Shown piece by piece: positions 14,189 through 38,841 of a DNA stretch of 64,000 nt (the stretch's first letter is position 1; each line of letters opens with the position of its first letter). A program made the translations under genes and the position numbers. The notes below the pieces were generated by a model. It was not told the DNA's origin. It worked only from the letters and a program-made list of their open reading frames with translations, and did no database searches. The stretch spans positions 11,548 through 75,547 of the forward strand of contig DASSCU010000043.1 in assembly GCA_035697485.1 (NCBI GenBank), in the 5' to 3' direction. The DNA comes from Actinomycetota bacterium (GTDB taxonomy: Bacteria; Actinomycetota; UBA4738; HRBIN12).

Positions 14189-14226
14189 GTCGGTTCGGTC
14201 CTTCCTCTCCCGGTCGGGGAAACGAC

Positions 14227-15585: not shown

Positions 15586-15629
15586 CCGGCGCCTCAACCG
15601 GTCCCTGCCGCGGCCGATAGGAACAACAC

Positions 15630-20191: not shown

Positions 20192-21265
20192 GTGGCGACC
20201 GAGGTCGGCCCCGCCGGCGCCCCAGCCGAGACGACGGGTGGCGGGCGGCCCCTGCCCGACGACGAGCTGGCCGAGATGCTGCACATGCTCAAGCTCGCCC
20301 GGTACTTCGACGAGCGCATGGAAGCCCTGTACCGGCAGGGCCGCCTTCCGGGCGCGATCTACTCGGGCCGTGGCCAGGAGGGCACGCACGTCGGCACGGC
20401 GTGGGCCCTGCGTCCGGACGACTCGTTGTTCCCCACGCACCGCGACCTCACAGCACAGCTCACCAAGGGTCTGGACCTCAAGCGGGTGATGGCGCAGTTC
20501 TGGGCTCGCATCGACGGGTACACCCGCGGGCGCGATGGCAACAGCCACATCGGCGACTGGTTCGGCAACAAGACGTTCACGGTCATGTCGCACCTGCCGA
20601 TCGCCTATCCGGTCGCGGTCGGCGCGGCGCTCGCCTACAAGCTCAAGGGCGAGCCCAACGTCGCCCTCGCGATCTGCGGAGACGGCTCCACCTCGAACGG
20701 GCGCTGGCACGAGGCGATCAACACGTCGGCGATCCACCGGCTCCCCGTCGTCTGGGTCGTGAACAACAACCAGTTCGCGTACTCGACCCCGAACATGCTC
20801 GAGTTCGCGATCCCGACGATCGCCGAGCGGGCGGTCGCCTACGGCATCCCCGGTGTCCGCGTCGACGGCGGCAACGTGCTCGAGGTCTTCGAGGCCGCGC
20901 GCGCGGCGGTCGAGCGCGCCCGGGCCGGTGAGGGCCCGACGCTGATCGAGTCGGTCTCGCTGCGGTGGCGGGGCCACGCGGGGCACGACCCGGCGAAGTA
21001 CATGCCCGACGAGCTGCTCCAGGAGTACATGGCGAACCACGATCCGGTGCGCAACTTCGAGGAGTACTTGCTCTCGGAAGGTGTCGTCACGAAGGACGAC
21101 ATCGACGGGATCGCGCAGCGCGTCGAGGCAGAGTTCGACGAGGGGTACGCGTTCGCACTCGCCTCCCCGTTCCCCGAGCCCGGCGACGCCACGAAAGGGC
21201 TCTGGGTCGAGGACGGCTACTGGACGAGCGAGCCCGGCCGCGGCGGCGGCACCGAGGCGGGCTGA
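20192..21265 (+). CDS. 2-oxoacid dehydrogenase E1 component alpha subunit (TPP-dependent)
   Basis: GTG 20192 with SD GGAG 7 nt upstream. TPP-binding GDGSTSNGRWHEAINTSAIHRLPVVWVVNNN. Confidence 0.85.
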   Translation: MATEVGPAGAPAETTGGGRPLPDDELAEMLHMLKLARYFDERMEALYRQGRLPGAIYSGRGQEGTHVGTAWALRPDDSLFPTHRDLTAQLTKGLDLKRVMAQFWARIDGYTRGRDGNSHIGDWFGNKTFTVMSHLPIAYPVAVGAALAYKLKGEPNVALAICGDGSTSNGRWHEAINTSAIHRLPVVWVVNNNQFAYSTPNMLEFAIPTIAERAVAYGIPGVRVDGGNVLEVFEAARAAVERARAGEGPTLIESVSLRWRGHAGHDPAKYMPDELLQEYMANHDPVRNFEEYLLSEGVVTKDDIDGIAQRVEAEFDEGYAFALASPFPEPGDATKGLWVEDGYWTSEPGRGGGTEAG

Positions 21266-22314
21266 TGGCGACGACCGTGAAGCTCGAAGCCGGCGCCGCC
21301 GGTCACGGCGCCGAACCACGCGGGAAGCGCGGCGACGACGGGCAGGCCACCTACCTGATCGCGATCGCCGAGGCCCTCTGGGAGGAGATGGAGCGCGACG
21401 AGCGTGTCTACATGCTCGGCGAGGACATCGCCGTCTACGGTGGGGCCTTCAAGGTGACCGAGGGGTTCCTCGACCGATTCGGTGAGCAGCGCGTGATCGA
21501 CACGCCGATCGCCGAGGAGACGATCGTCGGCATGGCGGTCGGCTCGGCGATGGAAGGCTTGCGGCCCGTCGCGGAGTTCCAGTACGCCGACTTCATGTCG
21601 TCGGGATTCGACTCGATCTCCACGGTGCTGGGGCGCTACCACTATCGCTCGGGCGTGCCGCTGCCGGTCGTCCTGCGCGGTCCGTCGGGAGGGTACGTGC
21701 GGGCGTCGTCGTTCCACTCGGTGAATCCCGAGCCCTGGTTCGCCTACGGGGGCGGCATCAAGATCGTGGCGCCGGCGTTCCCGGCCGACGCCAAGGGTTT
21801 GATGAAGTCCGCGGTGCGCGACGACAACCCGGTGCTCTACCTCGAGCACAAGTGGATCTATCGGCGCATCAAGGAGCAAGTCCCCACCGACCCTGAGTTC
21901 CTCGTGCCGATCGGCGAGGCCGACGTGAAGCGTGAGGGCACCGACGTCTCGATCGTCACGTACGGCGCGCTCGTGCACAAGTCCCTGGAGGCCGCCGAGA
22001 GCCTCGCGCAGCGTGGCATCTCCGCCGAGGTCGTCGATCTGCGCACCGTGCATCCGATCGACGAGGAGACCGTGCTGAACTCGATCGCGAAGACGTCGCG
22101 TGCGCTGGTCGTGAGCGAAAGCTACCGGTTCGTCGGCATCGGGGCCGAGGTCGGGGCGACGATCGCCGAGAAGGCGTTCGAGCACCTCGACGCCCCCGTG
22201 ACCAGGCTGTCGCCGCCCAACATGCCGGTCCCCTTCTCCCCCACGCTCGAGGACGCGTTCCTGCCGCAGGTGGCCGACATCGAGCACGCCGTCGAGGAGT
22301 TGTCCGCCTGGTGA
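21265..22314 (+). CDS. 2-oxoacid dehydrogenase E1 component beta subunit
   Basis: Start overlaps the E1alpha stop (TGATG). Transketolase-like pyrimidine-binding and C-terminal domains (…EQRVIDTPIAEE…). Confidence 0.9.
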   Translation: MATTVKLEAGAAGHGAEPRGKRGDDGQATYLIAIAEALWEEMERDERVYMLGEDIAVYGGAFKVTEGFLDRFGEQRVIDTPIAEETIVGMAVGSAMEGLRPVAEFQYADFMSSGFDSISTVLGRYHYRSGVPLPVVLRGPSGGYVRASSFHSVNPEPWFAYGGGIKIVAPAFPADAKGLMKSAVRDDNPVLYLEHKWIYRRIKEQVPTDPEFLVPIGEADVKREGTDVSIVTYGALVHKSLEAAESLAQRGISAEVVDLRTVHPIDEETVLNSIAKTSRALVVSESYRFVGIGAEVGATIAEKAFEHLDAPVTRLSPPNMPVPFSPTLEDAFLPQVADIEHAVEELSAW

Positions 22315-22342: not shown

Positions 22343-23719
22343 ATGACGTCGATCCAGATGCCGCAACTCGGCGAGACGATCGTCGAAGGCACGATCCTGA
22401 AGTGGCTGAAGGCCGAGGGCGACGCCGTGGAGCGCGACGAGCCGCTGTTCGAGATCTCGACCGACAAGGTCGATACGGAAGTGCCCTCCCCCGTGGCGGG
22501 CACCCTCACGAAGATCCTCGTGGAGGAAGGCGCGACGGTTCCCGTCGGGACGGAACTGGCGGAGGTCGCGTCCGACGAGGACTCGGCAACTCAGCCGGAC
22601 GCGGGTGCTCCGGCGGGTGAGGCTGCGGTGTCGTCCGCGCCGCCGGCGTCGCAGGCGAGCGGCGGGCCCAGTGGCGAGACGCCGGGCCAGGATGTGAGCG
22701 ACGCCTCCGCCCCACCCGTGTCCGTTGCGTCGCCCGTCCCCGCCGGATCCGGGGTCGCTCCGGTGCCGGATCGGGGGCCTCGGTCGCAGATCCTCTCGCC
22801 GCTCGTGCGCAAGCTGGCACAGGAGCACGGCATCGACCTGTCCGCGGTGACGGGCACCGGCACCGGAGGGCGGATCACCAAGGCCGACGTCATGGCCGTG
22901 GTGGCGTCGGGCGGCGCAGGTGCGGGGGCACCCTCGCCCGCGACGCCGGCGGCCGCGCCGGTGGCCGCTTCGACGGGGGTCGCGCCGCCTGCGGTCGGCA
23001 CCGCCGCGGCCGCGGGGGAGACGGTCGAGCCGATGTCGCACATCCGCAAGGCGATCGCCACCCACATGCTCGCTTCGGTGAACGAGACGGCACGCGCGTG
23101 GACGATGGTCGAGGTGAACGTCGATCATCTCGTGAAGCTTCGCGAGCGCGCGAAGGACGCGTTCCTCGCGGCGCACGGTGTGAAGCTCACGTACCTACCG
23201 TTCGTGGTCCGCGCAACCGTCGATGCGCTGCAGGCGTTCCCGGCGGTGAACTCGCGCATCGTCGGGGACGAGGTCGTCACGCCCCGCGCCGTCCACATGG
23301 GCATCGCCGTCAGCTATGACGCGGGTTTGATCGTGCCCGTGATCCGCGACGCCGAAGCGATGAACAGCGTCGGCATCGCGGCCGCGGTCGCCGACCTCGC
23401 CGCCCGGGCCCGCTCGCACCAACTGAAGCCCGACGAGGTCCAGGGCGCCACCTTCACGATCACGAACCCCGGCCCGTACGGCTCCCTGATTAGCGTGCCG
23501 ATCATCAACCAGCCGAACGTGGGCATCCTGTCGCTCGACGCGATCCAGCGGCGGCCGGTCGTGGTCGAGGGTGACGCGATCGCCGTGCGCAGCATGGTGT
23601 ACGTCTCGATGTCATGGGACCACCGCCTGATCGACGGCGAGATCGCCACGCGGTTCCTGGCCCGCGTGAAGCACAACCTCGAAGGCTGGGATTTCGCCGA
23701 GGACCTGGGGATCCGATGA
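22343..23719 (+). CDS. Dihydrolipoamide acyltransferase (E2) with lipoyl, E3-binding and catalytic domains
   Basis: Lipoyl site EISTDKVDTEVPSP, E3-binding domain ILSPLVRKLAQEHGIDLSAVTGTGTGGRITKADV, catalytic DHRLIDG. SD GAAGGAGG lies upstream. Confidence 0.9.
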   Translation: MTSIQMPQLGETIVEGTILKWLKAEGDAVERDEPLFEISTDKVDTEVPSPVAGTLTKILVEEGATVPVGTELAEVASDEDSATQPDAGAPAGEAAVSSAPPASQASGGPSGETPGQDVSDASAPPVSVASPVPAGSGVAPVPDRGPRSQILSPLVRKLAQEHGIDLSAVTGTGTGGRITKADVMAVVASGGAGAGAPSPATPAAAPVAASTGVAPPAVGTAAAAGETVEPMSHIRKAIATHMLASVNETARAWTMVEVNVDHLVKLRERAKDAFLAAHGVKLTYLPFVVRATVDALQAFPAVNSRIVGDEVVTPRAVHMGIAVSYDAGLIVPVIRDAEAMNSVGIAAAVADLAARARSHQLKPDEVQGATFTITNPGPYGSLISVPIINQPNVGILSLDAIQRRPVVVEGDAIAVRSMVYVSMSWDHRLIDGEIATRFLARVKHNLEGWDFAEDLGIR

Positions 23720-24417
23720 CCCGGCGGACGTGGCTGTTCGAGCCCGATGGGCTCGTGCCGTACGACGCCGCGAACGAGGCGATGCACGACCTGGCGCGGC
23801 GGCGACTCGACGACGTGGTCCCCGACGCAGTGATCCTGCTGCAGCACCCTCCGGTGTTCACGGCCGGCCGCCGTGCGAAGCCCGAGCACCTGGTCTGGAG
23901 TGAGGACGAGGCGGCCGCGCACGGCGCCGGGGTGCACCACATCGACCGGGGTGGCTCGTTCACGTTCCACGGACCCGGGCAGCTCGTGGGGTATCCGATC
24001 CTGCACCTCGGCGGTCGCCCCGACGCTGCTCGGTACCTGCGCGCGCTCGAGGCCGCCGTGATCCGAACCGGCGCGGAGCTCGGGGTGGAACTGCACCGGC
24101 GGGACGACGTGCAGACGGGGGTCTTCGCCGGGGACGACAAGGTCTGTGCGATCGGCGTGCGCTTGATGCGGACCCGGGTGACGCTGCACGGCTTCGCGAT
24201 CAACTGCGACACCGACCTGTCGTGGTTCGACGGCATCGTGGCCTGTGGGCTCCCCGACAACGGCGTGACGTCGCTCTCGAGGCTGCTCGAGCGCGACGTC
24301 ACCGTCGAGGAGGTCCTCCCGATCGTGGAAGACGCACTCGCGGCAGAGTTCGGGCTCGCCTACGAGATGGCCCCTCCTGACGAGCTCGAACCGTTCCTCG
24401 CGCCCCTGGTGGCCTGA
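23716..24417 (+). CDS. lipB: Lipoyl(octanoyl) transferase LipB
   Basis: Start ATG overlaps the E2 stop (ATGA). Contains ...RGGSFTFHGPGQLVGYPIL...DKVCAIGVRL... (LipB catalytic Cys/Lys region). Confidence 0.85.
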   Translation: MTRRTWLFEPDGLVPYDAANEAMHDLARRRLDDVVPDAVILLQHPPVFTAGRRAKPEHLVWSEDEAAAHGAGVHHIDRGGSFTFHGPGQLVGYPILHLGGRPDAARYLRALEAAVIRTGAELGVELHRRDDVQTGVFAGDDKVCAIGVRLMRTRVTLHGFAINCDTDLSWFDGIVACGLPDNGVTSLSRLLERDVTVEEVLPIVEDALAAEFGLAYEMAPPDELEPFLAPLVA

Positions 24418-24456
24418 ACCGCGACGGTCGAGGACGGCCGGACGGGGCCGGGCGGC

Positions 24457-25203
24457 TCAGGCGGTGTCGGCGATCAGCGCGTACCGCGGGAGATGCTCGA
24501 GCCATCCCAGGGGCCAGGGCTCGTGCAACCGGGCGGCCCACTCGATGTCACGGAGACGCTGGATGCGCACGCCGGTCCATCCGGCCTCGTAGGCGGCGTC
24601 GACCAGGGGGATGGGTGACGGCATCCCCGCGAGCGGCAGCGCCTCGAGCACCTCGTCGGGGTAGGGGGCATGGTGGTGGTCGGCGACCCCCATCGCTCGA
24701 CGGACCATGTCGGCCATGGCGTGCTTGGCCCGGTCGGCGGAGGCGCGGGAACCCCGGACCCCCTCGAAGAGCACGATGCGTCCGCCGGCCGCCGTCACCT
24801 CGCGCCACGCGCGGAGCGCTCCGACCGGGTCGGGCATGGTCCACAGCAGATGACGCTCGATCACGGCGTCGAACGGTCCACCGGGCGGCGCCATCGCGGA
24901 TCCGACCTCGAACCGGAGCTCGAGCCCCTTCACGGCGGCCTTCTCGCGGGCCTTCGAGAGCATGCCCTCGGACAGGTCCAGGGCGGTCACCCGATACCCG
25001 AGCTCCGCCGCGAGCAGGCTCAGCGAGCCCGTGCCCGCCCCGGCGTCGAGCACCGCGACGGGCGGCTCGGGCAGCGCTCGTCGCAGCGCGGCTCGCCAGG
25101 TGGCCGCCTCGAGCGGATCGGAGACCGCATGCGAGACGGAGCGGTCGTAGGTCTCTGCATCGCGATCCCAGAAGTCCCTGATCCGATCGTGCACGTCGGG
25201 CAT
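24457..25203 (-). CDS. Class I SAM-dependent methyltransferase
   Basis: Motif I VLDAGAGTGSLS and post-I ALDLSEGML. Confidence 0.75.
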   Translation of the reverse strand: MPDVHDRIRDFWDRDAETYDRSVSHAVSDPLEAATWRAALRRALPEPPVAVLDAGAGTGSLSLLAAELGYRVTALDLSEGMLSKAREKAAVKGLELRFEVGSAMAPPGGPFDAVIERHLLWTMPDPVGALRAWREVTAAGGRIVLFEGVRGSRASADRAKHAMADMVRRAMGVADHHHAPYPDEVLEALPLAGMPSPIPLVDAAYEAGWTGVRIQRLRDIEWAARLHEPWPLGWLEHLPRYALIADTA

Positions 25204-25225
25204 GCGCTTTCCCTCCGGGAGGTCG

Positions 25226-26041
25226 TCAGAAGAGACGGGCGGCGAGCTTGGGCCGGTACTCCCCCACGAGCGGGTCGTCCCCGAGGGTGGCGAAGATGTC
25301 GACCATCGACTCCCGCGCGGTGGCCGGGTCGTCGTCGAAGGCCGCGAGCAGCCCTTCGAGCGCGTCGCGCCACCTCCCCGAGGCCGCCGCCGCCCTCGCC
25401 CTCGAGATCGCGTCCTCGCCCGCGAGCGAGGCCCAGTCGTGAACCCGCACCGTCGCCATCACGCGTTCCGCATCGCGATCGGGCAGCAAGGGCTCGACGA
25501 GCGCCTTCGCCTCCTCGGTCTGTCCGCGGCCCACCAGGATCCGGGCGAGCCCGACCGCCGCTTCCCGGTTGTCCGGATCCTTCGCGAGGGCGTCACGGTA
25601 CCCCGCCTCAGCCGACGCGAGGTCGCCGGCGACCTCCTCCGCGAGTGCCTCGTCGGCCTCGACGTCGGCCTCGCTCGGGAGGATCGAGTCGATGAACCGG
25701 TTGACCTCGGGTTCGGGGTAGGCCCCGATGAACATGTTCACGGGCTGCCCACCACTGAACGCCACGACGGTGGGGATCCCCTGACTCTGCACCGCCTGCA
25801 ACAATGCGTTGCCGACGGCGTTGGCGTCGACGTCGAGCTTGGCCAGGAGGAACGCTCCTTGCCGCTCCGCGGCGACCTTCTCGAGGATCGGGCCGAGCGT
25901 GCGGCACGGCGCGCACCACGAGGCCCACATGTCGACCACGACGGGGCGCTGCATCGAGCCTTCGATCACCACCTGCTCGAAGTCGGCGTCGGTGACGTCG
26001 AGCACGGTGGTCGCGGTGCTCGGCCTGCTCATGTCCACCAT
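25226..26041 (-). CDS. Thioredoxin-domain protein with C-terminal TPR-like region (YbbN/CnoX-like co-chaperone)
   Basis: WASWCAPCR thioredoxin CxxC motif, followed by a helical-repeat C-terminal half. Confidence 0.75.
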   Translation of the reverse strand: MVDMSRPSTATTVLDVTDADFEQVVIEGSMQRPVVVDMWASWCAPCRTLGPILEKVAAERQGAFLLAKLDVDANAVGNALLQAVQSQGIPTVVAFSGGQPVNMFIGAYPEPEVNRFIDSILPSEADVEADEALAEEVAGDLASAEAGYRDALAKDPDNREAAVGLARILVGRGQTEEAKALVEPLLPDRDAERVMATVRVHDWASLAGEDAISRARAAAASGRWRDALEGLLAAFDDDPATARESMVDIFATLGDDPLVGEYRPKLAARLF

Positions 26042-26054
26042 GCTTCTCAGCCTC

Positions 26055-28265
26055 TCACACGCTCACGGCTGCGACGGGCGGGCGGCGTGACCCGCCGAGG
26101 TCGCCGCGATCGCGACCACGACCGAACCGGCGGAGGCGGAGCGCGTTCAGCACCACGGTCACGCTCGAGACCGCCATCGCCGCGGCCGCCCACATCGGAT
26201 CGAGCACCCCGAACACGGCGAGCGGGATCATCACGACGTTGTACGCGAACGCCCAGAAGAGGTTCTGCGCGATGACCCGGTAGGTCCGACGGGCGAGCTC
26301 GATCGCATCCGCCACCGATGCGAGCGAGCCTCCCAACAGGTTCACCTCGGCCGCGGCGAGCGCGACGTCGGTGCCCCTCCCCATCGCGACGCCCACGTCG
26401 GCCTTGGCCAGGGCGGGCGCGTCGTTCAACCCGTCGCCGACGAAGATCACCCGATGCCCGGCCCCCTGCAGCTGCGCGACCTCCTCGACCTTGCCCTCGG
26501 GACCGACCTCGGCGGACACGCGACGGATCCCGACATCGGCGGCGACCGCCCGAGCGGTCGCGCGATGGTCGCCCGTGACCATCGCGACCTCGAGGCCGGC
26601 CCCGCGGAGGCGGGCGACGGTGTCGCGTGCCTCGGGCTTCACCCGATCGGCCACGGCCACCACGCCGATCGGGTCGCCGTCACGCCACACGGCGAACGGG
26701 GTTCGACCCTCCGCGGCCAATCGGTCGATCTGCGCCTGCATCGCGGGCGACAACGGCCCCGCCCGTCCGACACGGACCTCACGCCCGTCGACCGTCGAGA
26801 TGGCCCCGAGTCCCGGTTCGGCGCGGTGCCGGTCCCCCGCGGGCACGTCGATGGCGCGCTCCCGGGCCGCGAGGACGATCGCCTCGGCGATCGGATGTTC
26901 CGAACCGGCTTCCGCCGCGGCCGTAGCTGCGAGGAGGGTGTCGTCGTCCACCCCGGGGGACGGAACGAGATCGGTGAGCCGCATCACGCCGTCGGTCACC
27001 GTGCCCGTCTTGTCGAGCAGCACGACGTCGGCGCTGCGAGCGGACTCGAACACCTCGCCGCCCTTGAAGAGGACACCCAGCTCTGCCGCCCTCCCCGTGC
27101 CCGCCATGATCGCCGCGGGCGTGGCGAGCCCGAGCGCGCACGGGCACGCGATGAGCAGGACCGCCACCGCATGGAGCATCGCCGCTCCCGTCGTCGCGTC
27201 GGTGAGCGCGAGCCAGCCGACGAACGTGGCCGCGGCGATCGCGAGGACGACGGGCACGAAGACCGCCGACACGCGATCCGCGAGGCGCTGGACCGGCGCC
27301 TTCGAACCCTGGGCGGCCTCGAGCAGGCGCACGATCTCGGCGAGCCGCGTCCCAGCGCCGACGGTGGTGACGAAGACGACCAATCGGCCGTTCCCGTTCA
27401 CCGTGGCCCCGACGACGTCGTCGCCGGGCTCGACCTCGACGGGCGCCGACTCGCCGGTCAGCAGCGAGAGGTCGACCCACGACGACCCCTGCTTCACGAT
27501 CCCGTCGGCCGGGATCGTCTCGCCGGGGCGGACGACGACGAGCTGCCCGGGGCGGAGGTCGTCGATCGGGACCGGCCGTTCCGACCCGTCGATCAGCAGC
27601 GTCGCCGACTTCGCCCCACGGTCGAGCAGCGCCCTCGATGCGTCGGCGGCGCTGGCGCGAGCGCGTGCCTCGAGCACTTTGCCGACGAGGATCAACGTGA
27701 CGATCACGGCCGCCGTGTCGAAGTAGTGGTCGTGTTCGCCCAGCAGGACGGCAGCGGCGCTGTACCCGTACGCCGACAGCGAGCCGATCGCGACCAACGT
27801 ATCCATCGTGGTCGCGCCGTGCAGGGCGGACCGCGCCGCTGCTCGAAGGAACGGCCAGCCCGAGTAGAAGACGACGGGCGTCGAGAGCAGCCATGCCAGC
27901 TCCTGGCTCCGCGCCGCATGCGGCAGGGCGAACGTGAGCCAGAGGACGGCGACCGTCAGCGGCACCGCCACCGCGAGCCTGCGCGCGTACGACCGTGCCT
28001 CGTCGGCCGGAGACCGTCGCTCGGTGTGGATCCGGGCGCCGTACCCGACCCCTCGGACCGCCTCCACGAGCGGTCCGACGTGGACCGCGTCGCGACCGCC
28101 CTGCTCCTCCCGGACCATCGCGGTGCGCGTCGCGAGGTTCACCGAGGCTGCCTGCACCCCCGGCACCCGCTCGAGCGCACGTTCCACCCGCTGCACACAG
28201 GACGCGCAGGTCATGCCCTCGATGTCGAGCACGATCGCGTGACGGTCGCTCTCCACGGGTCTCAC
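26055..28265 (-). CDS. copA: Cu(I)-translocating P1B-type ATPase
   Basis: N-terminal HMA domain [17 protein letters not shown] motif [18 protein letters not shown] phosphorylation site, and VTGDHRATA...[10 protein letters not shown]. Confidence 0.9.
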
Positions 28266-28522
28266 TTGCCCGCGAGCCGGCCCACCGCCGCCATCAACTC
28301 CTCGATCTTGGCCTCACCGCCCCCCTGCTCGATCGACTCGCGGACGCAGTGGCGCACGTGGTCATCGAGCAACCCCATGCCGACAGCTCGCAGTGCAGCC
28401 TGGACCGAGCTCAGCTGGGTGAGGATGTCGATGCAGTAGGCATCCTCGTCCACCATGCGCTGCAGGCCGCGGACCTGACCCTCGATGCGACGGAGCCGAT
28501 CCTGCACCGCCTTCTTGTTCAT
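28262..28522 (-). CDS. csoR: CsoR-family copper-sensing transcriptional repressor
   Basis: 86 aa [44 protein letters not shown]...HCVR. The Cys-His-Cys metal ligands are in the conserved positions. Its stop overlaps the copA start (ATGA). Internal ATG 28522 was chosen over the Arg/Ser-rich extension. Confidence 0.8.
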
Positions 28523-28547
28523 CTCGTAGCCGTACACCGCAGCCCCC

Positions 28548-28712
28548 TCACATGTGCCGCTCGTCGTCGGTGAGCGACAGGAAATGGTCGGGATCGTCCC
28601 GGAACCGTCGCATGCATCCGACCGAGCAGAAGAGATACGTCGTGCCTCCGTGCTCCCATGCAGCCGCGGCGGACGCTTCATCGACAGCCATGCCGCACAC
28701 CGGATCCTTCAT
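28548..28712 (-). CDS. YHS/TRASH-domain small metal-binding protein (54 aa), absent from the ORF track
   Basis: Translated by hand: MKDPVCGMAVDEASAAAAWEHGGTTYLFCSVGCMRRFRDDPDHFLSLTDDERHM. It matches the YHS domain pattern DPVCGM...YYFCS..C..F. SD GAGGAGG lies 7 nt upstream of the ATG, and the stop is 26 nt upstream of csoR. Confidence 0.7.
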   Translation of the reverse strand: MKDPVCGMAVDEASAAAAWEHGGTTYLFCSVGCMRRFRDDPDHFLSLTDDERHM

Positions 28713-28750
28713 GGGTCGCCTCCTCACACCTGGGTCGGTTCCATCGCGAG

Positions 28751-28770
28751 TATACCAGGGGGGGGTATCC
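28751..28770. promoter_or_regulatory. Candidate CsoR operator: G-tract pseudopalindrome tATACCAGGGGGGGGTATcc
   Basis: ATACC...GGTAT inverted repeat flanking a G8 tract, about 40 nt upstream of the YHS-csoR-copA unit. It resembles the GC-rich, G/C-tract-centred palindromes bound by CsoR in Bacillus and Mycobacterium. Confidence 0.5.
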
Positions 28771-28848
28771 GCATTAGGCCGTCGAGATCTCGGGTCGGCC
28801 GAGGACCCCGGTGTATGCTCGCCACACGGTGCAAGGAAGCTCGGTCAC

Positions 28849-29871
28849 GTGTCCACGCGGGTAGCGCCGACCCCCCACGGGGCGCTCGGACTCACCGACG
28901 AGGACCTCCTGGCGATGTTCCGCCTCGTGCTGACGGCCCGCCTGCTCGACGAGGCGGCCCTGCGCCAGAACCGCATGGGCCGGGCTCCGTTCGTCGTGCC
29001 CGCCGAAGGGCACGAAGGGTGCCAGGTGGGCACGGCATGGGCGATGCGCCGAGGCATCGACGTCTGGTTGCCGTATTACCGCGACGGCGGCGTGGTGCTC
29101 ACCGCCGGCATGACGCCTTACGAGATCTTCCTCGGCATCTTCGCGAAGGCCGACGACCCGTCGAGCGGCGGCCGCCAGATGCCGTCGCATTGGGGGCATC
29201 GCGCGCTCGGCATCATCACCGGCTCCTCCCCGATCGCGACCCAGGTGCCGCACGCGGCCGGCATCGCCTATGCGATCAAGTACCGCAACGAAGACGCCGT
29301 CGTGGCGTCTTGGTTCGGCGACGGAGCGACGAGCGCGGGCGACTGGCACGAGGGGCTGAACTTCGCGGGGATCCACCGCTTGCCGGTGGTCTTCGTCTGC
29401 GAGAACAACCACTACGCGATCAGCGTGCCGCAGTCTAAGCAGATGGCGATCGACGACGTGGCCGACCGGGCCGCGGGGTACGGGTTCCCCGGTGTCGTGG
29501 TCGACGGCAACGACGTGCTCGCCTGCTACGCCGCGATGAAGGAGGCGCACGACCGCGCCCGCGCCGGCGAGGGCCCCACGCTGATCGAATGCAAGACCTA
29601 CCGGTTCCTGGGGCACACGTCCGACGACGACGACAAGACCTACCGCTCGCGGGACGAGGTGGAGGAGGCGCGACATCACGACCCGCTCCACGTGTTCGGC
29701 GAGTACCTACGTTCGCAGGGCCTGCTCGACGACGTCGGTGCCGAGGAGCTGCGCGGCGACGTCAAAGGCGAGATCGACGAAGCCCTCGCAGCCGCTTGGG
29801 ACGCCTCCGACCCGGAGCCCACGTCGGCGCTTCGACACGTGTTCGCCGGCGACGACGAGGACGACCGATGA
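28849..29871 (+). CDS. Second TPP-dependent E1 alpha subunit (acetoin/pyruvate/branched-chain 2-oxoacid dehydrogenase type)
   Basis: GTG 28849 with SD AAGGAAG 8 nt upstream. TPP motif GDGATSAGDWHEGLNFAGIHRLPVVFVCENNHYAIS. Confidence 0.8.
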   Translation: MSTRVAPTPHGALGLTDEDLLAMFRLVLTARLLDEAALRQNRMGRAPFVVPAEGHEGCQVGTAWAMRRGIDVWLPYYRDGGVVLTAGMTPYEIFLGIFAKADDPSSGGRQMPSHWGHRALGIITGSSPIATQVPHAAGIAYAIKYRNEDAVVASWFGDGATSAGDWHEGLNFAGIHRLPVVFVCENNHYAISVPQSKQMAIDDVADRAAGYGFPGVVVDGNDVLACYAAMKEAHDRARAGEGPTLIECKTYRFLGHTSDDDDKTYRSRDEVEEARHHDPLHVFGEYLRSQGLLDDVGAEELRGDVKGEIDEALAAAWDASDPEPTSALRHVFAGDDEDDR

Positions 29872-30857
29872 CCGAGAAGAACGTCGTCACCGCGATCCGC
29901 GATGCCCTGCACGACGAGATGGCCGATGACGACCGGATCGTGCTGCTCGGCGAGGATGTCGGGAACCGGGGCGGCGTCTTCCGCATCAGCGCGGGCTGGA
30001 TGCAGGAGTTCGGGGAGCAGCGCGTGATCGACACGCCGCTCGCGGAATCGGGGCTCGTCGGGGTCGCGATCGGCATGGCGATGCACGGGATGCTGCCGGT
30101 GGCGGAGATCCAATTCGCGGACTTCATCCATCCGGCGTTCGATCAGATCGTGTCGGAAGCCGCCCGCATCCGGTACCGATCGAACGGGGCCTTCTCGTGT
30201 CCCCTCGTGATCCGCGCCCCGTGCGGCGGGGGCATCCACGGGGCGCTCTACCACTCGCAATCGATCGAAGCCTTCTTCGCCCACGTGCCGGGGCTCAAGG
30301 TCGTCATGCCGGCCACACCCGCCGACGCGGCGGGCCTGCTGCGCGCCGCGATCGCCGACCCCGACCCGGTGCTGTTCCTCGAGCACAAGAAGACCTATCG
30401 CGCGATCACCGGCGACGTGCCCGACGAGCGGCATGTCGTGGAGATCGGGCGGGCCGACGTGAAACGCGAGGGCATCGACCTCACGTGCGTCAGCTACGGG
30501 TATGCCCTGCATACGTGCCTCGACGCCGCTGCGCGGCTGCACGAAGACGAGGGCGTCTCGGTCGAGGTCGTCGACGTGCGCTCCCTCGCGCCGCTCGACA
30601 CCGAGACGATCCTGGCGTCGGTGCGCCACACCTCGAAGGCGATCGTCGTGTACGAGGACAATCGGACCTATGGCGCAGGCGCGGAGATCGTGGCCACGAT
30701 CGCCGAGGAGGCCATGTTCGACCTCGACGCGCCGATCGTGCGTGTCGGAGGCCCCGACGTGCCCGCCATGCCGTTCGCAGCGCCGCTCGAACACTTCTTC
30801 ATGGAGCCAGAGCCCGACCAGGTCTACCGGCGCATGCTCGAGCTCGCGCGCGCCTGA
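29868..30857 (+). CDS. Second E1 beta subunit
   Basis: ATGA overlap with the preceding alpha subunit. Conserved E1beta sequence (…EQRVIDTPLAES…). Confidence 0.85.
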   Translation: MTEKNVVTAIRDALHDEMADDDRIVLLGEDVGNRGGVFRISAGWMQEFGEQRVIDTPLAESGLVGVAIGMAMHGMLPVAEIQFADFIHPAFDQIVSEAARIRYRSNGAFSCPLVIRAPCGGGIHGALYHSQSIEAFFAHVPGLKVVMPATPADAAGLLRAAIADPDPVLFLEHKKTYRAITGDVPDERHVVEIGRADVKREGIDLTCVSYGYALHTCLDAAARLHEDEGVSVEVVDVRSLAPLDTETILASVRHTSKAIVVYEDNRTYGAGAEIVATIAEEAMFDLDAPIVRVGGPDVPAMPFAAPLEHFFMEPEPDQVYRRMLELARA

Positions 30858-30929
30858 TCACGCGCTCGGACCCGTCGCATCCACAACCGGTTCAGAGGCC
30901 GTCCGAGCGCGTCGATAACGCCATCGACG

Positions 30930-33900
30930 GTGAACCCGCGCGATCACACGCCCAACCCCGACCGCGAGCGGTCGACGAGCCGGCACGACCTCACGGTCGT
31001 GCTGGGCGCCGTCGCGCTGTTCGCGATCGGGGTCGCCACCGGCGCGTTCCAGGTGATCCACGAATCCCTCGAGACCAGGGCACGAGGACTCGCCGACGCA
31101 GCCTTCGGGGTCCTCATCGTCGGCTGCTGGGCGGGCGGCGTGATCGCGCTGCTGCACCGTCGCCATGCGCGGGTCGAGCAGTCTCGGCGAACCGAGAGCG
31201 AGGCGAAGTACCAGGCCATGGTCGAGCAGGTGCCCGCAGTGGCCTACACGTGGGATCCGGCGCACGAGCCCGGCACCGTTCCGGCCACCTACATCAGCCC
31301 CCAGATCGAGCGCCTGCTCGGCTTCACGACACAGCAATGGATCGAAGATCCCGAGCTGTGGGGCCGCCAGGTCCACGATGGCGACCTCGACCGCGTGCTC
31401 TCGGCCTGGCACGAGGCGGTCGAGGCGGGCGATCGGTTCTCGGTGGAGTACCGCATCCGCACCGCGACCGGCGAGGAGCTGTGGGTCCGCGACGAGGCGA
31501 GCCCGTCTCACGGTCGGGACGGGACGCGATACCGCGGGGTGCTCTACGACGTCACGTCGGAGCACGAAACACAGCAGGCGCTCCGCGCCCTGGAGGAGCG
31601 GTTCCGGCGACTCGTCGAGCAGACACCGGGCATCACCTACATCGAGGACGCGGCGACCGAGGAGACCCTCTACATCAGCCCGCAGGTCGAAGACGTCTAC
31701 GGGTACACGCCTGAGGAGTGGATGGCCGACGCCGGGCTCTGGGCGCGTTCGCTGCACCCCGACGACCGGGCGTGGGTCGTGGCGGACAACGCCGCCGACA
31801 CCGAAGGTGTGTGGAGCGTGGACTACCGGTCCGTCACCAGGGACGGTCACACGATCTGGGTGCACAACGAGGCCGTGTTGATCCGCGACGACGGCGGCGC
31901 GCCGCTCTTCTGGCAGGGGCTCGTGCTCGACATCACCGAGCGCAAGGAGGCCGAGGCAAGGCTGCGCGAGGCCGAGGAACGGTACCGCCGGCTCGTCGAG
32001 CAGCTGCCGGCGGTGGTCTACATCGACGCGGTCGACGAGTTGGCGACCGCGCGATACGTCAGTCCGCAGTACCAGCGCCTCACCGGATACACGCCCGCCG
32101 AACGGATGGCCGACCCCGCGATGTGGATGAGGATGATCCACCCCGACGACCGCGAGCGCGTGGTCGCGGAGTCCAACCGCACGAACGAGACGGGAGAGGC
32201 CTACGACATCGAGCATCGTATCGTCCGCAAGGACGGGCGGGTCGTCTGGGTGCACGACCACGCCTTCCTGGTCCGTTCGGCCGATGGCGACGACGTGTGG
32301 CAGGGCGTGCTCACCGACATCACCGATCGCAAGCTCACGGAGGACGCCCTGACCACGAGGGACCGCATCCTCGAGGCGGCGGGGTACGCGGCGGAGCGCT
32401 TCCTGCGCGCGCCCTCGTGGCGGGATTGCATCGACGACGTGCTCGCCCGGCTCGGTCTCGCCGGTTCGGCCACGCGGGCGGCGGTGTTCGAGAACCTCGA
32501 CCGGCCCTTCGGCCCGCACGCGTCGCTGCGGCACGCATGGGTCGCCGACGACGCACCCACCGCCATCGACCGCCCGTCGTCCGGATCCCACCCCTACGGG
32601 GAGGGCCACGCCCGTTGGGTCGAGACGCTGGGCGCCGGCGATGCGATCCACGGTCCGGTGGCAGACCTCCCCGAGCCCGAACGAAGGACGCTCGCCGACG
32701 CCGGCATCCGGTCCACGATCGTCATGCCGGTGCACGTGCAGGGCGAGTGGTGGGGATACATCTGCTTCGACGAGAGCGACGAGGATCGGGCCTGGCAGCC
32801 CGCCGAGGTCGACGCGATCCGGGTGGTCGCCAACACCCTCGGTGCCGCGATCGAGCGGGAACAGGGCGCCCGGCGCCTCGGCGAGGCCGAGGAGCGCTAT
32901 CGAGCGATCGTGGAGCACGTCCCGGCCGCGATCTACCTCGACCGGGCCGACCGCTCGATGCACACGATCTATGTCAGCCCCCAGGTCGAGGAGATCACTG
33001 GGTTCACGCCCCAGGAATGGATCGACGAACCCGACCTGTGGCTGACGATCATGGCGCCGGAAGACCGTCCCGAGGCGGAGCGCACCTACCTCGCGTCGGT
33101 GACGTCGAAGCAACCATGGAAGGCCGAGTACCGGGTCAACACGCGCGATGGCCGCACGATCTGGTTGCACGACGAGACCACGTTCGTCACCGACGCGGAC
33201 GGAGAACCACTCTTCCTTCAGGGGGTGCTCATGGACATCACCGAGCGGAAGCTCGCGGAGCAGGCCCTGCGGGACTCGGAGCGCCGCGAGCGCGACGCCG
33301 CCGAGCGGCTCCGCGCCCTCGACGAGATGAAGAACACGTTCCTCGCGGCAGTTTCGCACGAGCTCCGGAGCCCGCTCACGTCGATCCTGGGGCTGTCGCT
33401 GACCCTCGAGCGCGCCCCCGGGATGACCCCGAACGACCGTGAGGACCTGCTCGTGCGCCTCGCGTTCAATGCGCGCAAGCTCGACCGGCTGCTGAAGGAT
33501 CTGCTCGACATCGACCGACTCAACCGCGGGATCGTCGAGCCCCAGTACCGGACGGTCGACGTCGCAGCCCTCACGCGTCGGAGCGTCGAAAGCCTCGACA
33601 CGACCGCGGGCCGCGTGATCGAGTTCGACACACCGCCGCTCGTGCTCACGATCGACCCCCCCAAGCTCGAGCGCATCGTCGAGAACCTGGTCGCCAACGC
33701 GGTGCGGCACACCCCGACGACCAGCCGCATCTGGGTCCGACTGGAGCCGGTCGAGGGAGGGGCCCTGCTCAGCGTCGAGGACGACGGTCCAGGCGTACCC
33801 GCCGAGCTCCGCGACGCCGTCTTCGAGCCGTTCCGTCAGGGGCCCACGGCGACGCCACACTCACCCGGGACCGGGATCGGCCTTTCCCTCGTCGCTCGCT

Positions 33901-34058
33901 TCGCGGAGCTGCACAGCGGGCGTGCGTGGGTCGACGAACGCCCCGGCGGCGGTGCCGCGTTCCGCGTCCTCCTGCCGTCGGCTCCCGGCACCGGCCCGAT
34001 GCCGGACCCCTGCCCCGACGAGGACGCCGCCGACACGCAGACGGCCGACGCGGTCTGA
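30930..34058 (+). CDS. Multi-PAS/GAF sensor histidine kinase with N-terminal TM helices
   Basis: Two N-terminal TM segments, at least four PAS-like repeats (recurring YISPQ.E...G.T..EW...W...HPDD), a GAF-like region, H-box SHELRSPLTSILG and an HATPase_c domain (GTGIGLSLV). Confidence 0.85.
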   Translation: MNPRDHTPNPDRERSTSRHDLTVVLGAVALFAIGVATGAFQVIHESLETRARGLADAAFGVLIVGCWAGGVIALLHRRHARVEQSRRTESEAKYQAMVEQVPAVAYTWDPAHEPGTVPATYISPQIERLLGFTTQQWIEDPELWGRQVHDGDLDRVLSAWHEAVEAGDRFSVEYRIRTATGEELWVRDEASPSHGRDGTRYRGVLYDVTSEHETQQALRALEERFRRLVEQTPGITYIEDAATEETLYISPQVEDVYGYTPEEWMADAGLWARSLHPDDRAWVVADNAADTEGVWSVDYRSVTRDGHTIWVHNEAVLIRDDGGAPLFWQGLVLDITERKEAEARLREAEERYRRLVEQLPAVVYIDAVDELATARYVSPQYQRLTGYTPAERMADPAMWMRMIHPDDRERVVAESNRTNETGEAYDIEHRIVRKDGRVVWVHDHAFLVRSADGDDVWQGVLTDITDRKLTEDALTTRDRILEAAGYAAERFLRAPSWRDCIDDVLARLGLAGSATRAAVFENLDRPFGPHASLRHAWVADDAPTAIDRPSSGSHPYGEGHARWVETLGAGDAIHGPVADLPEPERRTLADAGIRSTIVMPVHVQGEWWGYICFDESDEDRAWQPAEVDAIRVVANTLGAAIEREQGARRLGEAEERYRAIVEHVPAAIYLDRADRSMHTIYVSPQVEEITGFTPQEWIDEPDLWLTIMAPEDRPEAERTYLASVTSKQPWKAEYRVNTRDGRTIWLHDETTFVTDADGEPLFLQGVLMDITERKLAEQALRDSERRERDAAERLRALDEMKNTFLAAVSHELRSPLTSILGLSLTLERAPGMTPNDREDLLVRLAFNARKLDRLLKDLLDIDRLNRGIVEPQYRTVDVAALTRRSVESLDTTAGRVIEFDTPPLVLTIDPPKLERIVENLVANAVRHTPTTSRIWVRLEPVEGGALLSVEDDGPGVPAELRDAVFEPFRQGPTATPHSPGTGIGLSLVARFAELHSGRAWVDERPGGGAAFRVLLPSAPGTGPMPDPCPDEDAADTQTADAV

Positions 34059-34066
34059 CCCCCGCG

Positions 34067-35344
34067 CTAACCGTCGTCGGGCCGGTCGGCGTCGAGGTCG
34101 GGCTCGTCGACGAGGCGCTTGCGGACCGCCGCCACCAGCCCTTCCCCTCGCGCCCTCGCACGGCGCCGCTGCTCGTCCATCGCCTGCCTCGCTTCTTCGG
34201 GGTCGATCTCCCGCGTGAGGTCCGCCTCGATCACGTCGTGCCGGTCGAGCGCGCTCGAGACCACGGCCTGCACGATCGCGGCGACGGGCAGCGCGATGAG
34301 CGCCCCGATCAACCCGGCGATGCTGGCTCCGGCGATCGCGCACCCGAACGCGACCGCGGCGTGCAGCTCCATCGTCTTCGCCGTGATGCGCGGGCTGAGC
34401 ACGTAGTTCTCGAGCTGCTGGTACAGGGTGAAGAACACGAGCAGGATCAACGCCTTCCACGGGCTCTCGACGACGGTGACGAGGAGCGGCAAGGCCATCG
34501 CGATGTAGGTGCCCACGGTCGGGATGAACTGGGAGACGAGCCCCATCCATAGCGAGAGCGGAACGGCGAAGGGGATCTCGAGGACCGACAGCACGATGAA
34601 GGTCGCCACACCGGAGACGAGGGCGAGCAAGAGCCGGGAGTACAGGTACGCCCCGGTCTTCTCGATCGCGACCTCCCAGATCCACAGCACGTGCTGCTGG
34701 CGGGCGGGCGGCAGGACCGAGAGCACCGTGCGGCGGAAGCGCGGCCCGTCGGCGGTGAAGTAGAACGTGAACAGCCCAACCGTCAGGAGCATGAAGATCG
34801 CGCCGACCAGCGACGACGCGAACCCGAAGACGTTGCCGGCGATGTTGGTCGCGAACCCCGCGAGGTTGGAGTCGGCGTTCTTGAGTTGATCCTCGATCGT
34901 GGCCTGCGAGATCTCGACGTTGAACCACCGCTCGGTGTATCCGCTGACGTTCGTCAGGATGTCCGGCGCCGCGTCGATCAAGGCTCGCAGTTGGTCGACG
35001 ACCAACGGGATCATCATCCCGACCATCACGATCGAGACGACCGCGATCGCGAACAGGATGGCACCCGTCGCCAGGCCCCGACGCCAGCCCCGCCGTGCGA
35101 GCCAGTCGACCGCCGGCTCGAGCGCGAACGACGCGAACAGGGCCACGAGCACCCAGGTGAGCAGGCTGGAGAGCTGGCGCAACAGCGACGTCGCCGTCAT
35201 CGCGACCAGCCACACCGCGAAGATGACCCCGAGGAGCGTGAGGATCCATCGCCAGGAGGGCGGTTGGATCGTCACCGGGATCGGCCGGCGCTCCTCGGGC
35301 TCGGACGAGCCGTCGCCGGACCTCGGCTCCTGACCAGCGTTCAT
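34067..35344 (-). CDS. AI-2E family (PerM/YhhT, UPF0118) transporter
   Basis: 8-TM profile and overall similarity to AI-2E family permeases, with a Pro/Glu-rich N-terminus. Confidence 0.75.
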   Translation of the reverse strand: MNAGQEPRSGDGSSEPEERRPIPVTIQPPSWRWILTLLGVIFAVWLVAMTATSLLRQLSSLLTWVLVALFASFALEPAVDWLARRGWRRGLATGAILFAIAVVSIVMVGMMIPLVVDQLRALIDAAPDILTNVSGYTERWFNVEISQATIEDQLKNADSNLAGFATNIAGNVFGFASSLVGAIFMLLTVGLFTFYFTADGPRFRRTVLSVLPPARQQHVLWIWEVAIEKTGAYLYSRLLLALVSGVATFIVLSVLEIPFAVPLSLWMGLVSQFIPTVGTYIAMALPLLVTVVESPWKALILLVFFTLYQQLENYVLSPRITAKTMELHAAVAFGCAIAGASIAGLIGALIALPVAAIVQAVVSSALDRHDVIEADLTREIDPEEARQAMDEQRRRARARGEGLVAAVRKRLVDEPDLDADRPDDG

Positions 35345-35416
35345 CGATCCTCCAGCTCCACCGCGACTGCTCCTCGCGCGGAGGATACCCCCGATGCGGG
35401 GCTACACTCGGACGAC

Positions 35417-36394
<978 letters not shown>

Positions 36395-36413: not shown

Positions 36414-36811
<398 letters not shown>

Positions 36812-37735: not shown

Positions 37736-38140
37736 TCAGCGGGCCGCGAGCCAGTCGTCGACTCCCTGGTTCGCGAGTCGATCTGCTTCGGCGTTCCGCT
37801 CACGACGCACGTGCTCGAACTCGATCGAGTCGAACGCCGCGGCGAGCTCACGCACCCGCCGATGCAGGGGCTGGAGGTGCGGCGACTTCACCCGGTACCG
37901 GCCGGTGAGCTGGTTGATCAGGAGCTGGGAGTCCGATCGCAACAGCACCGCGGATGCGCCGAGCTCGCGGGCCCGTTCCAGACCCCGGATCACGGCCGTG
38001 TACTCGGCGACGTTGTTCGTGGCCTCGCCGAGACCTTCGGCCACCTCTGCCAGCACGACCCCGCTCGGGTCGGTGATCTGCGCACCTGCGCCCGCCGGGC
38101 CAGGGTTCCCACGGGAGGCCCCGTCGCAGGCGACGATCAC
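37736..38140 (-). CDS. RNase H (RNase HI-like) family protein
   Basis: 134 aa MIVACDGASRGNPGPAGAGA...NNVAEYTAVIRGLE...RSDSQLLINQL... with DEDD-type RNase H catalytic residues in context. Confidence 0.75.
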   Translation of the reverse strand: MIVACDGASRGNPGPAGAGAQITDPSGVVLAEVAEGLGEATNNVAEYTAVIRGLERARELGASAVLLRSDSQLLINQLTGRYRVKSPHLQPLHRRVRELAAAFDSIEFEHVRRERNAEADRLANQGVDDWLAAR

Positions 38141-38841
38141 ACGACCAGGATGCGCCGGCAGTGCTCACACCTCCTGATGCCCTCGGCGCGCTTCACTCGG
38201 TCCAGCTCCACAGCCGAGAGCTGTTCGTGGCAGGCCTGGCACACTCCATCGACGAGCGCCGCCGCCCCGATGCCTTTCTTCAGCCGCCGCAGGTCCTCGT
38301 AGAGCTCGAGCACGTCGGGCTCGATCTCGGGAGCGATCGCCTCGCGCTCCGCGCCGCGCGCGGCGAGATCGGCATCGACGCGAGCGAACTCCTCCTCGGC
38401 CGCGCCGGCGGCCTCCTCCGCCTCGGTCCGTCGCGTGGTCATCTCGCGCTCGGCGACCGCCGCGTCGGCCTCGAGCTGTTCGCGGAGCTCCATCAGGGCT
38501 AGCAGCTCGTCCTCGCGATCGGATCGGCGCTTGCGGATGCTCGCGATCTCGTGCTGCAGCGCCTCGAGCTCCTTGGCGTTCACGATCGACCCGTCGTACA
38601 TACGCGTCTGCTCGGCCTGCTCCTTCTGCGTCATCGAGTCGATCTCGTGTTCGAAGCGCATCTGGTCGCGCCCGAGCTCATCGAGTCGCAGGCGGAGCTC
38701 CCCGAGCCGGGCCTCCGCGGCATCGGCCGTCACACGCACCGCGGCGAGCTCGGTACCCTGCTCGAGCGTCCGGCGACGCGCGCGCAACCGGTCGATCGCG
38801 GTGTCGGCGTCCTGGAGAGCGAGCAGGCGGGGGGTCGTCAT
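38137..38841 (-). CDS. C4-type zinc-ribbon coiled-coil protein (COG1579/DUF164 family)
   Basis: Long coiled-coil followed by CQACHEQL...CEHCRRIL. Its stop overlaps the RNase H start, a pairing commonly conserved in Actinobacteria. Confidence 0.7.
   Translation of the reverse strand: MTTPRLLALQDADTAIDRLRARRRTLEQGTELAAVRVTADAAEARLGELRLRLDELGRDQMRFEHEIDSMTQKEQAEQTRMYDGSIVNAKELEALQHEIASIRKRRSDREDELLALMELREQLEADAAVAEREMTTRRTEAEEAAGAAEEEFARVDADLAARGAEREAIAPEIEPDVLELYEDLRRLKKGIGAAALVDGVCQACHEQLSAVELDRVKRAEGIRRCEHCRRILVV

Follow-up and report, generated by a model that had tools for sequence, protein, structure and literature searches.

The lipoate genes lipB (octanoyltransferase) and lipA (lipoyl synthase), and the genes that lie between them, were studied in a 64,000-nucleotide stretch of DNA from an Actinomycetota bacterium (GTDB lineage Bacteria; Actinomycetota; UBA4738; HRBIN12; GenBank assembly GCA_035697485.1, contig DASSCU010000043.1, positions 11,548 to 75,547 of the forward strand). 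This whole stretch is called the window here. Its GC content is ~70% throughout; genes were called by third-position GC, their starts were then refined, and identities were assigned by matches to Pfam, NCBIfam, Rfam and PDB together with motif checks (Table 1). The lipB stop and the lipA start are 10,999 bp apart. The original prediction for this locus, made from the letters alone, had placed lipA ~11 kb beyond lipB and just before rnpB, an RNase H gene and a Zn-ribbon gene, and had read lipB as fused to the E2 gene through an ATGA overlap; both descriptions agree with our map. All genes it listed for the interval, including a small YHS-domain open reading frame (ORF), were found by Pfam matches and ORF calls, and a predicted lipoprotein of 291 aa between rnpB and the RNase H gene is added to its list. 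Every component is from a well-known family, and it is the arrangement that sets the cluster apart: lipB closes a predicted operon resembling those for pyruvate dehydrogenase (PDH), lipA closes, or once closed, an E1 operon resembling those for branched-chain 2-oxoacid dehydrogenase (BCKDH) that includes a kinase gene, and a copper operon lies between the two.

Table 1. Genes and other features of the lipB-lipA cluster, followed by features of its surroundings, in window coordinates.
Feature	Position	Strand	Evidence and remarks
gcvT (glycine-cleavage T protein)	17639-18757	-	Pfam GCV_T and GCV_T_C; TIGR00528, 337 bits (cut-off 236)
lpd (E3, dihydrolipoyl dehydrogenase)	18798-20180	+	TIGR01350, 464.6 bits (cut-off 408.8)
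E1alpha-1, PDH-like	20192-21265	+	Pfam E1_dh; nearest structure G. stearothermophilus PDH E1alpha 1w85, 163 bits
E1beta-1	21265-22314	+	Pfam Transket_pyr and Transketolase_C; NF006667, 345.8 bits (cut-off 321)
E2, DlaT/SucB_Actino type	22343-23719	+	TIGR02927, 435.4 bits (cut-off 423.45); Pfam Biotin_lipoyl, E3_binding and 2-oxoacid_dh
lipB (octanoyltransferase)	23716-24417	+	NF010925, 193.8 bits (cut-off 155); TIGR00214, 143.6 bits (cut-off 83.55)
S-adenosylmethionine (SAM) methyltransferase, class I	24457-25203	-	Pfam Methyltransf_25 and Methyltransf_11; last gene of predicted minus-strand operon
Thioredoxin-TPR protein, CnoX/YbbN-like	25226-26041	-	Pfam Thioredoxin, TPR_19 and TPR_20; WCAPC intact
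copA, P1B-type Cu(I) ATPase	26055-28265	-	TIGR01511, 544.6 bits (cut-off 397)
csoR/ricR-type copper-sensing repressor	28262-28537	-	Pfam Trns_repr_metal, 106.5 bits
YHS-domain ORF, 59 aa	28548-28727	-	Pfam YHS, 52.9 bits (cut-off 30.3); first gene of predicted copper operon
CsoR-operator-like palindrome ATACCAGGGGGGGGTAT	28752-28768	.	ATACC-N7-GGTAT; in 121-bp divergent spacer between YHS and E1alpha-2
E1alpha-2, BCKDH-like	28849-29871	+	Pfam E1_dh, 306 bits; nearest structure T. thermophilus 1um9
E1beta-2	29868-30857	+	Pfam Transket_pyr and Transketolase_C; NF006667, 327 bits (cut-off 321); ATGA overlap with E1alpha-2
Multi-PAS/GAF histidine kinase, 1042 aa, membrane-anchored	30930-34058	+	Pfam; HisKA H-box SHELRSP; HATPase_c
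AI-2E family permease	34067-35344	-	Pfam AI-2E_transport, 206.8 bits; restricted to window's clade and L017
lipA (lipoyl synthase)	35417-36394	+	TIGR00510, 353.4 bits (cut-off 310.25); CX4CX5C and CX3CX2C cluster motifs
rnpB (RNase P RNA, class A)	36415-36806	-	Rfam RF00010, 207.5 bits; convergent with lipA
Predicted lipoprotein ORF, 291 aa	36850-37725	+	Between rnpB and RNase H gene; no Pfam or NCBIfam match
RNase H gene	37736-38140	-	Pfam; conserved right flank in relatives
CT398-like Zn-ribbon gene	38137-38841	-	Pfam; conserved right flank in relatives
A-type Fe-S carrier gene	936-1361	-	
SUF Fe-S assembly operon	7199-12790	-	Within 12 kb upstream of lipoate cluster
sufS-like class-V aminotransferase	7199-8470	-	SUF operon
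sufC-like ABC ATPase	8490-9569	-	SUF operon
sufD-like	9613-10962	-	SUF operon
sufB-like	10922-12790	-	SUF operon
Double-rhodanese gene	13340-14350	-	
Predicted lipoprotein ORF, 228 aa	16942-17628	+	Between response-regulator/histidine-kinase gene and gcvT; no Pfam or NCBIfam match; conserved in L081 and L083
ArsR-type regulator gene	46318-46677		Beside 1022-aa fusion
1022-aa fusion	46704-49772	+	TLC-type ATP/ADP-transporter-like region, HEAT repeats and cyclic-nucleotide-binding domain
Three adenylate/guanylate-cyclase-domain ORFs	49691-53895		After 1022-aa fusion
DUF222 and HNH endonuclease ORF	56046-57245	-	Only mobile-element-like gene seen in window; 20 kb from lipB-lipA cluster
Second Lpd-like flavoprotein disulfide reductase, 480 aa	59531-60973	+	Pyr_redox_2 and Pyr_redox_dim; 40 kb from first lpd

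The genes from lpd to lipB follow one another with spacings of 11, -1, 28 and -4 nt, the last of these being the ATGA in which the E2 stop codon TGA is overlapped by the lipB start codon at position 23716. This spacing suggests a single operon, lpd-E1alpha1-E1beta1-E2-lipB, which would encode a PDH-like complex whose E2 is of DlaT type, and in which lipB would be translationally coupled to the E2 gene. All parts of a 2-oxoacid dehydrogenase cluster were identified by Pfam and NCBIfam matches, namely E1alpha and E1beta, an E2 with lipoyl, subunit-binding and catalytic domains, and Lpd. The E2 has a single lipoyl domain with the lipoyl-lysine motif TDKV at residues 40-43. Transcribed away from lpd, gcvT lies across a spacer of 40 bp. 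A DlaT/SucB_Actino-type E2 gene directly upstream of a co-oriented lipB is reminiscent of the dlaT-Rv2216-lipB operon of Mycobacterium tuberculosis (PMC7064933), in which species lipB (Rv2217) and lipA (Rv2218) are neighbors (PMC8219968). Unlike in M. tuberculosis, lipA in the window is found 11 kb from lipB and behind a second E1alpha/E1beta pair, and an E2 with one lipoyl domain is preceded by lpd and heterotetramer-type E1alpha and E1beta genes. The premise of the original prediction that lipB and lipA adjoin each other in many actinobacteria holds for M. tuberculosis and has support from that organism only; a literature search on the locus tags of lipB and lipA in Corynebacterium returned nothing relevant.

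The first part of the interval is read on the minus strand in the order YHS, csoR, copA, thioredoxin-TPR gene, methyltransferase gene, with spacings of 10, -4, 13 and 22 nt. These genes could form a copper-efflux operon behind a CsoR operator, of which a redox-active CnoX-like thioredoxin and a methyltransferase would be the distal products. CopA has the motifs of a P1B-1 ATPase (GMTCxxC, TGE, CPC, DKTGT and GDGxND, with GMTCxxC, CPC and DKTGT at residues 17, 374 and 418). The repressor has the ligand set Cys35-His60-Cys64 and scored 109.5 bits with the RicR model, under the 175-bit cut-off of that model. The YHS ORF is also annotated as a gene in three relatives (loci L081, L082 and L083). 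The best PDB matches of the thioredoxin-TPR protein are the YbbN/chaperedoxin structures 3qou, 3qdn and 9wcw (~90 bits), and its domain order, an N-terminal thioredoxin fold followed by C-terminal TPR, is that of Escherichia coli CnoX (YbbN). Its canonical WCAPC site sets it apart from E. coli CnoX, which is not known to have a CxxC motif.

The operator pattern ATACC-N7-GGTAT has a single match in the 64-kb window. It was found in 36 of the related loci described below, once or twice per locus in 1.3 Mb scanned, and its position is just upstream of E1alpha-2 in all of these except L033 and L036 (34/36). A csoR match is also present in 33 of the 36. In relatives the operator is often the perfect palindrome ATACCCCTAGGGGGTAT, a type that resembles published CsoR operators. 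Fold, ligands and palindrome identify a CsoR-family repressor with a predicted palindromic operator upstream of its own operon. The combination of a Cys-His-Cys repressor, a Cu-ATPase with CPC and GMTCxxC motifs and a GC-rich palindrome upstream is shared with actinobacterial CsoR/RicR operons such as cso of M. tuberculosis and the CsoR regulon of Streptomyces lividans. Unlike those operons, the one in the window starts with a YHS ORF, runs into the CnoX-like thioredoxin-TPR and methyltransferase genes, and is located between two halves of a lipoate/2-oxoacid dehydrogenase cluster.

The operator is 25 nt from the YHS start, and in the window it ends 43 nt upstream of a conserved -10-like element of E1alpha-2. 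A plain autoregulatory site is therefore likelier than a shared one, and this geometry speaks against co-regulation of the genes from E1alpha-2 to lipA by CsoR, which was also considered. Relatives with and without the copper genes alike conserve the stretch before the E1alpha-2 start, -10-like element included.

On the plus strand, E1alpha-2 overlaps E1beta-2 by 4 nt and is followed by the gene of a multi-PAS histidine kinase, and we propose that these genes and, ancestrally, lipA would form a further operon with a second, BCKDH-like E1 pair. Both pairs have the domains of heterotetrameric E1 (E1_dh and Transket_pyr/Transketolase_C, as in 1um9, 1dtw and 1w85). The two E1alpha sequences are 38% identical and the two E1beta sequences 48%. 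While E1alpha-1 is nearest to a PDH structure, the nearest structures of E1alpha-2 are of BCKDH type (T. thermophilus 2-oxoacid dehydrogenase 1um9 with 270 bits, human BCKDH 1dtw with 208 bits). Both E1alpha proteins score below the cut-off of the NCBIfam equivalog model PDH_E1_alph_x (255 and 336 bits vs 411), and no BCKDH-specific model matched the second pair, so that PDH-type for pair 1 and BCKDH-type for pair 2 are putative substrate classes. Unlike known heterotetrameric E1 complexes, pair 2 has no adjoining E2 or E3 gene, in the window or in any related locus, and is followed instead by a sensor kinase gene and lipA. Since pair 2 lacks an E2 and E3 of its own, its probable docking partner is the one E2/E3 whose genes lie 5 kb before it. 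The original prediction described this pair as orphan; it lies 5 kb from the lpd-E1-E2 operon and appears to have been ancestrally in one operon with lipA, so the description does not fit.

The kinase has two N-terminal transmembrane helices. We set aside the possibility that it is a BCKDK/PDK-like E1 kinase, as the canonical HisKA H-box and the two helices make it look like an ordinary sensor kinase. Neither in the window nor among relatives does a response-regulator gene adjoin it; the nearest, ~15 kb upstream, is of LuxR type. Among relatives the length of the kinase ORF varies from ~630 to 1860 aa, while the C-terminal ~380 aa are conserved; in most of the distant loci that align in this part only, it is 57-67% identical to that of the window. 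The kinase gene of the window holds DNA repeats of PAS units spaced 381-387 bp and multiples of about that unit; therefore change of length through duplication and loss of PAS units is likely. The three-fold spread in length together with these repeats suggests that sensor modules are gained and lost rapidly.

Where relatives have no kinase gene, the gap from E1beta-2 to lipA is 14-88 bp, and where they have the kinase but no AI-2E, the kinase ORF ends ~15 bp before lipA. Given these short gaps, lipA was probably the terminal gene of an ancestral E1alpha2-E1beta2-kinase operon. In the clade of the window, the AI-2E gene would have entered between the kinase gene and lipA in opposite orientation, leaving lipA behind a divergent spacer of 72 bp, which would now have to hold the lipA promoter. 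A scan for promoters and terminators gave 0 promoter-like and 1 terminator-like sequences, fewer than in shuffled sequences, and is uninformative at 70% GC. In another clade, the junction of kinase gene and lipA holds a minus-strand gene of a predicted lipoprotein of ~165 aa with no family match (L017, L028, L045, L061, L062, L064, L074, L075 and L077), and in L017 this gene and AI-2E are found in tandem. This junction may have received insertions more than once; alternatively, the lipoprotein and AI-2E genes may have been a pair that different clades lost in different ways.

The Fe-S cluster motifs of LipA are at residues 66 and 92, and both LipB and LipA have the features of their families. 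Downstream of lipA, rnpB was found in 7/7 relatives tested. The RNase H protein aligns with the N-terminal portion of model PRK07238. The 291-aa lipoprotein ORF is present in only some relatives, which accounts for the variable distance from lipA to the RNase H gene (0.4-6.9 kb). In M. tuberculosis, too, the wider neighborhood has a pair of RNase H (Rv2228c-like) and Zn-ribbon (Rv2229c-like) genes.

For comparison of gene order, species-representative genomes were searched with the LipA of the window, and the best 80 loci were retrieved with flanks of up to 10 kb and mapped by tblastn with 28 window proteins. All 80 are from metagenome-assembled genomes (MAGs) of uncultured Actinomycetota/Actinomycetes, with LipA 70-91% identical to that of the window. 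One order is kept throughout: lipB, (methyltransferase), thioredoxin-TPR, (copA, csoR), E1alpha2-E1beta2, (kinase), (AI-2E), lipA, where genes in brackets are present in some loci only. In all 72 loci with at least 1.3 kb of sequence upstream of lipA, the gene directly upstream is one of the block (E1beta-2, kinase or AI-2E). In 32 loci lipB and lipA can both be seen, and in no case are they within 1 kb of each other; the distances are 3.4-9.0 kb, and the shortest interval, 3.4 kb, is lipB-TrxTPR-E1alpha2-E1beta2-lipA. No locus that covers their position lacks the thioredoxin-TPR gene or the second E1 pair.

For the nearest relatives lipB falls outside the 10-kb flank, so three contigs (L081-L083) were reached through two thioredoxin-TPR homologs. 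All three have a complete order identical to that of the window, including the genes left of lipB: response regulator, response regulator/histidine kinase, lipoprotein, gcvT, lpd-E1alpha-E1beta-E2-lipB, methyltransferase-thioredoxin-copA-csoR-YHS, E1alpha-E1beta-kinase, AI-2E, lipA. Two of them, L081 and L083, are on the same contigs as L005 and L010, whose LipA has 83-85% identity. In L083 (contig_200057, 12142-16702), lpd, the E1 genes, E2 and lipB are called as several short fragments; these are probably assembly frameshift errors and not real pseudogenes, and gene calls in MAGs of this kind need caution.

lipB and lipA were thus separated before at least 80 species-level genomes diversified. 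We estimate at roughly 80% the probability that the interval is a vertically inherited, lineage-wide arrangement of uncultured soil Actinomycetota and not an acquired island. The original prediction had instead regarded the intervening genes as variable or acquired. An island of ~11 kb inserted between adjacent lipB and lipA, here or in recent ancestors, would account for the difference from M. tuberculosis, where the two genes are neighbors, and islands commonly carry genes for copper efflux, sensor kinases and permeases. As in genomic islands, two neighbors of a reference organism are separated here by cargo-type genes. Against such an event stand the identical order in three relatives, the presence of the thioredoxin-TPR/E1 core in all 72 assessable genomes, down to 70% LipA identity, and the lack of an empty site, with lipB beside lipA, in any of the 32 relatives that show both genes.

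Composition and mobility genes lead to the same conclusion. The genes of the interval have a GC content at third codon positions of 0.86-0.95 (mean 0.903), compared with 0.876 for the 41 other ORFs of the window. Judged by codon-usage log-likelihood, their choice among synonymous codons agrees with the usage of the window at least as well as that of the flanking genes does. By tetranucleotide correlation, measured in 4-kb windows against the rest, the interval is among the most typical stretches (z = +0.45 to +1.23). Its composition is native, and the deviation between 24.4 and 35.4 kb for which the original prediction proposed to look is not there. We found no tRNA in the 64-kb window, no integrase or transposase domain in any ORF of the interval by Pfam, and no direct repeats at its borders, the sole repeats being the PAS units within the kinase gene; the original prediction had likewise seen none of these marks. 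The interval therefore differs from genomic islands in mobility genes, insertion targets, repeats, compositional skew and absence from relatives alike, and we regard a single acquired island as very improbable.

The genes of the interval also diverge together with their surroundings. Identity of each to its window counterpart was compared by Spearman correlation with flank divergence, taken as the identity averaged over LipA, RNase H and the Zn-ribbon protein. The coefficients are 0.56 for the methyltransferase, 0.72 for thioredoxin-TPR, 0.81 for copA, 0.76 for E1alpha2, 0.79 for E1beta2, 0.82 for the kinase and 0.76 for AI-2E; those for flank genes with at least 17 loci are 0.82 for lipB, 0.77 for SDR, 0.76 for SURF1, 0.92 for the globin and 0.71 for the 291-aa ORF. 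All-against-all distances correlate moderately with those of LipA (0.14-0.77), because LipA distances saturate near 25%. The original prediction had named as speaking against it the same gene order in close relatives with vertical-looking phylogenies for all genes in the block; the same order and a vertical-looking pattern of divergence are both seen in this lineage.

What did stand of that prediction is that gene content varies. The methyltransferase, YHS-csoR-copA (at times csoR alone), the kinase and AI-2E are each patchy among relatives, against an invariant core of the thioredoxin-TPR gene and the second E1 pair. The methyltransferase gene is present in 19 and absent from 12 assessable relatives, and copA is present in 25 and absent from 28 of 53. 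We used Fitch parsimony on a midpoint-rooted neighbor-joining tree of LipA, E1alpha2 and E1beta2 with 58 taxa, an earlier neighbor-joining tree of flank genes being noisy from missing data. At the root, the methyltransferase, copA, csoR and kinase genes are reconstructed as present (4, 10, 13 and 10 changes, respectively), and AI-2E as absent and derived (2 changes); it looks like a clade-specific insertion. Relatives without the copper module carry what appear to be its remains. A C-terminal copA fragment (residues 677-714) abuts an operator in L067, a csoR fragment is kept in L030, and L008 and L012, which have no copA, show a degenerate operator and conserved sequence overlapping what is the 3' end of copA in the window. 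These deletion scars support the direction of loss independently of the tree. Because of the scars and the parsimony reconstruction, we favor loss over gain and infer that the methyltransferase, YHS-csoR-copA and PAS kinase genes are ancestral and were lost repeatedly. Deletions that removed the copper module, the methyltransferase gene or the kinase gene would then account for most differences among relatives, together with gain and loss of PAS units.

Another possibility is that the ancestor had the minimal order lipB-TrxTPR-E1alpha2-E1beta2-lipA and that the copper module, methyltransferase and kinase were gained repeatedly at the same sites. The patchy distribution on the tree, with 4-13 state changes for each module, would fit such a history, and the kinase-lipA junction has taken up AI-2E or the ~165-aa lipoprotein gene in different clades. 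The position of the root is uncertain, and copA of four distant loci is only 43-52% identical to that of the window, compared with 63-75% in most loci outside the closest group. Repeated gain does not readily explain the scars in genomes without the modules, nor why modules always have the same position and orientation, nor why their sequences track the divergence of the lineage, as do copA and the kinase, and we consider it unlikely.

Vertical descent with repeated loss has its own weak points. The tree is unbootstrapped, built from few proteins and midpoint-rooted, so the root states of copA, csoR and kinase could shift with another root. The four divergent copA sequences may represent replacement by a paralog or xenolog, and the correlation for csoR is weak (0.34, n=13, short protein). 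The relatives, from the best 80 or 120 matches of a genome scan and two protein searches, all belong to one lineage without an outgroup (an exact look-up of the LipA of the window gave no match); its ancestor may have gained the thioredoxin-TPR gene and the second E1 pair between a once adjacent lipB and lipA, or the two may never have been adjacent. The operons proposed here are read from gene spacing.

One could further ask if the arrangement of the cluster is kept by selection, with CsoR-CopA, a putative redox-active chaperedoxin and the sensor kinase protecting or regulating lipoylated E2, sensitive to copper and oxidants, and the [4Fe-4S] enzyme LipA. A link between copper and protein lipoylation is known from eukaryotic cuproptosis. 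The copper operon and thioredoxin-TPR gene are reconstructed as ancestral at this site, the CsoR operator is in a spacer shared with the promoter region of E1alpha-2, the thioredoxin-TPR protein has an intact CxxC and its gene is 13 bp downstream of copA, and both the SUF operon for Fe-S assembly and the gene of a rhodanese are within 12 kb. Set against these, the copper module would have been lost many times with the remainder of the cluster kept, more than half of the assessable genomes having no copA, and the operator has the geometry of a normal autoregulatory site. We consider such a functional unit unlikely as well. If true, it would represent a bacterial counterpart of the copper-lipoylation link in cuproptosis, and a sensor kinase would be wired into an operon of 2-oxoacid dehydrogenase and lipoyl synthase genes.

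The surroundings of the cluster are core metabolism (SUF operon, rhodanese gene, glycerate kinase and pyruvate kinase), which is consistent with a stable chromosomal region. Genes for Fe-S assembly and sulfur supply are found here near the gene of an Fe-S enzyme, LipA. Farther along the window, the 1022-aa fusion and the cyclase-domain ORFs that follow it suggest a local cyclic-nucleotide signaling cluster. The DUF222-HNH family, represented by one ORF, is multi-copy and possibly mobile in mycobacteria.

These findings correct the expectation with which the locus was first approached: a split between genes that are neighbors in a model organism, filled with cargo-like genes, is no evidence of horizontal acquisition. 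They document a lineage-specific organization of lipoate and 2-oxoacid dehydrogenase genes in abundant uncultured soil Actinomycetota. Understanding of the pathways themselves is unchanged, and the cluster may offer a small lead on a coupling of copper homeostasis, thiol redox and lipoylation in these bacteria.

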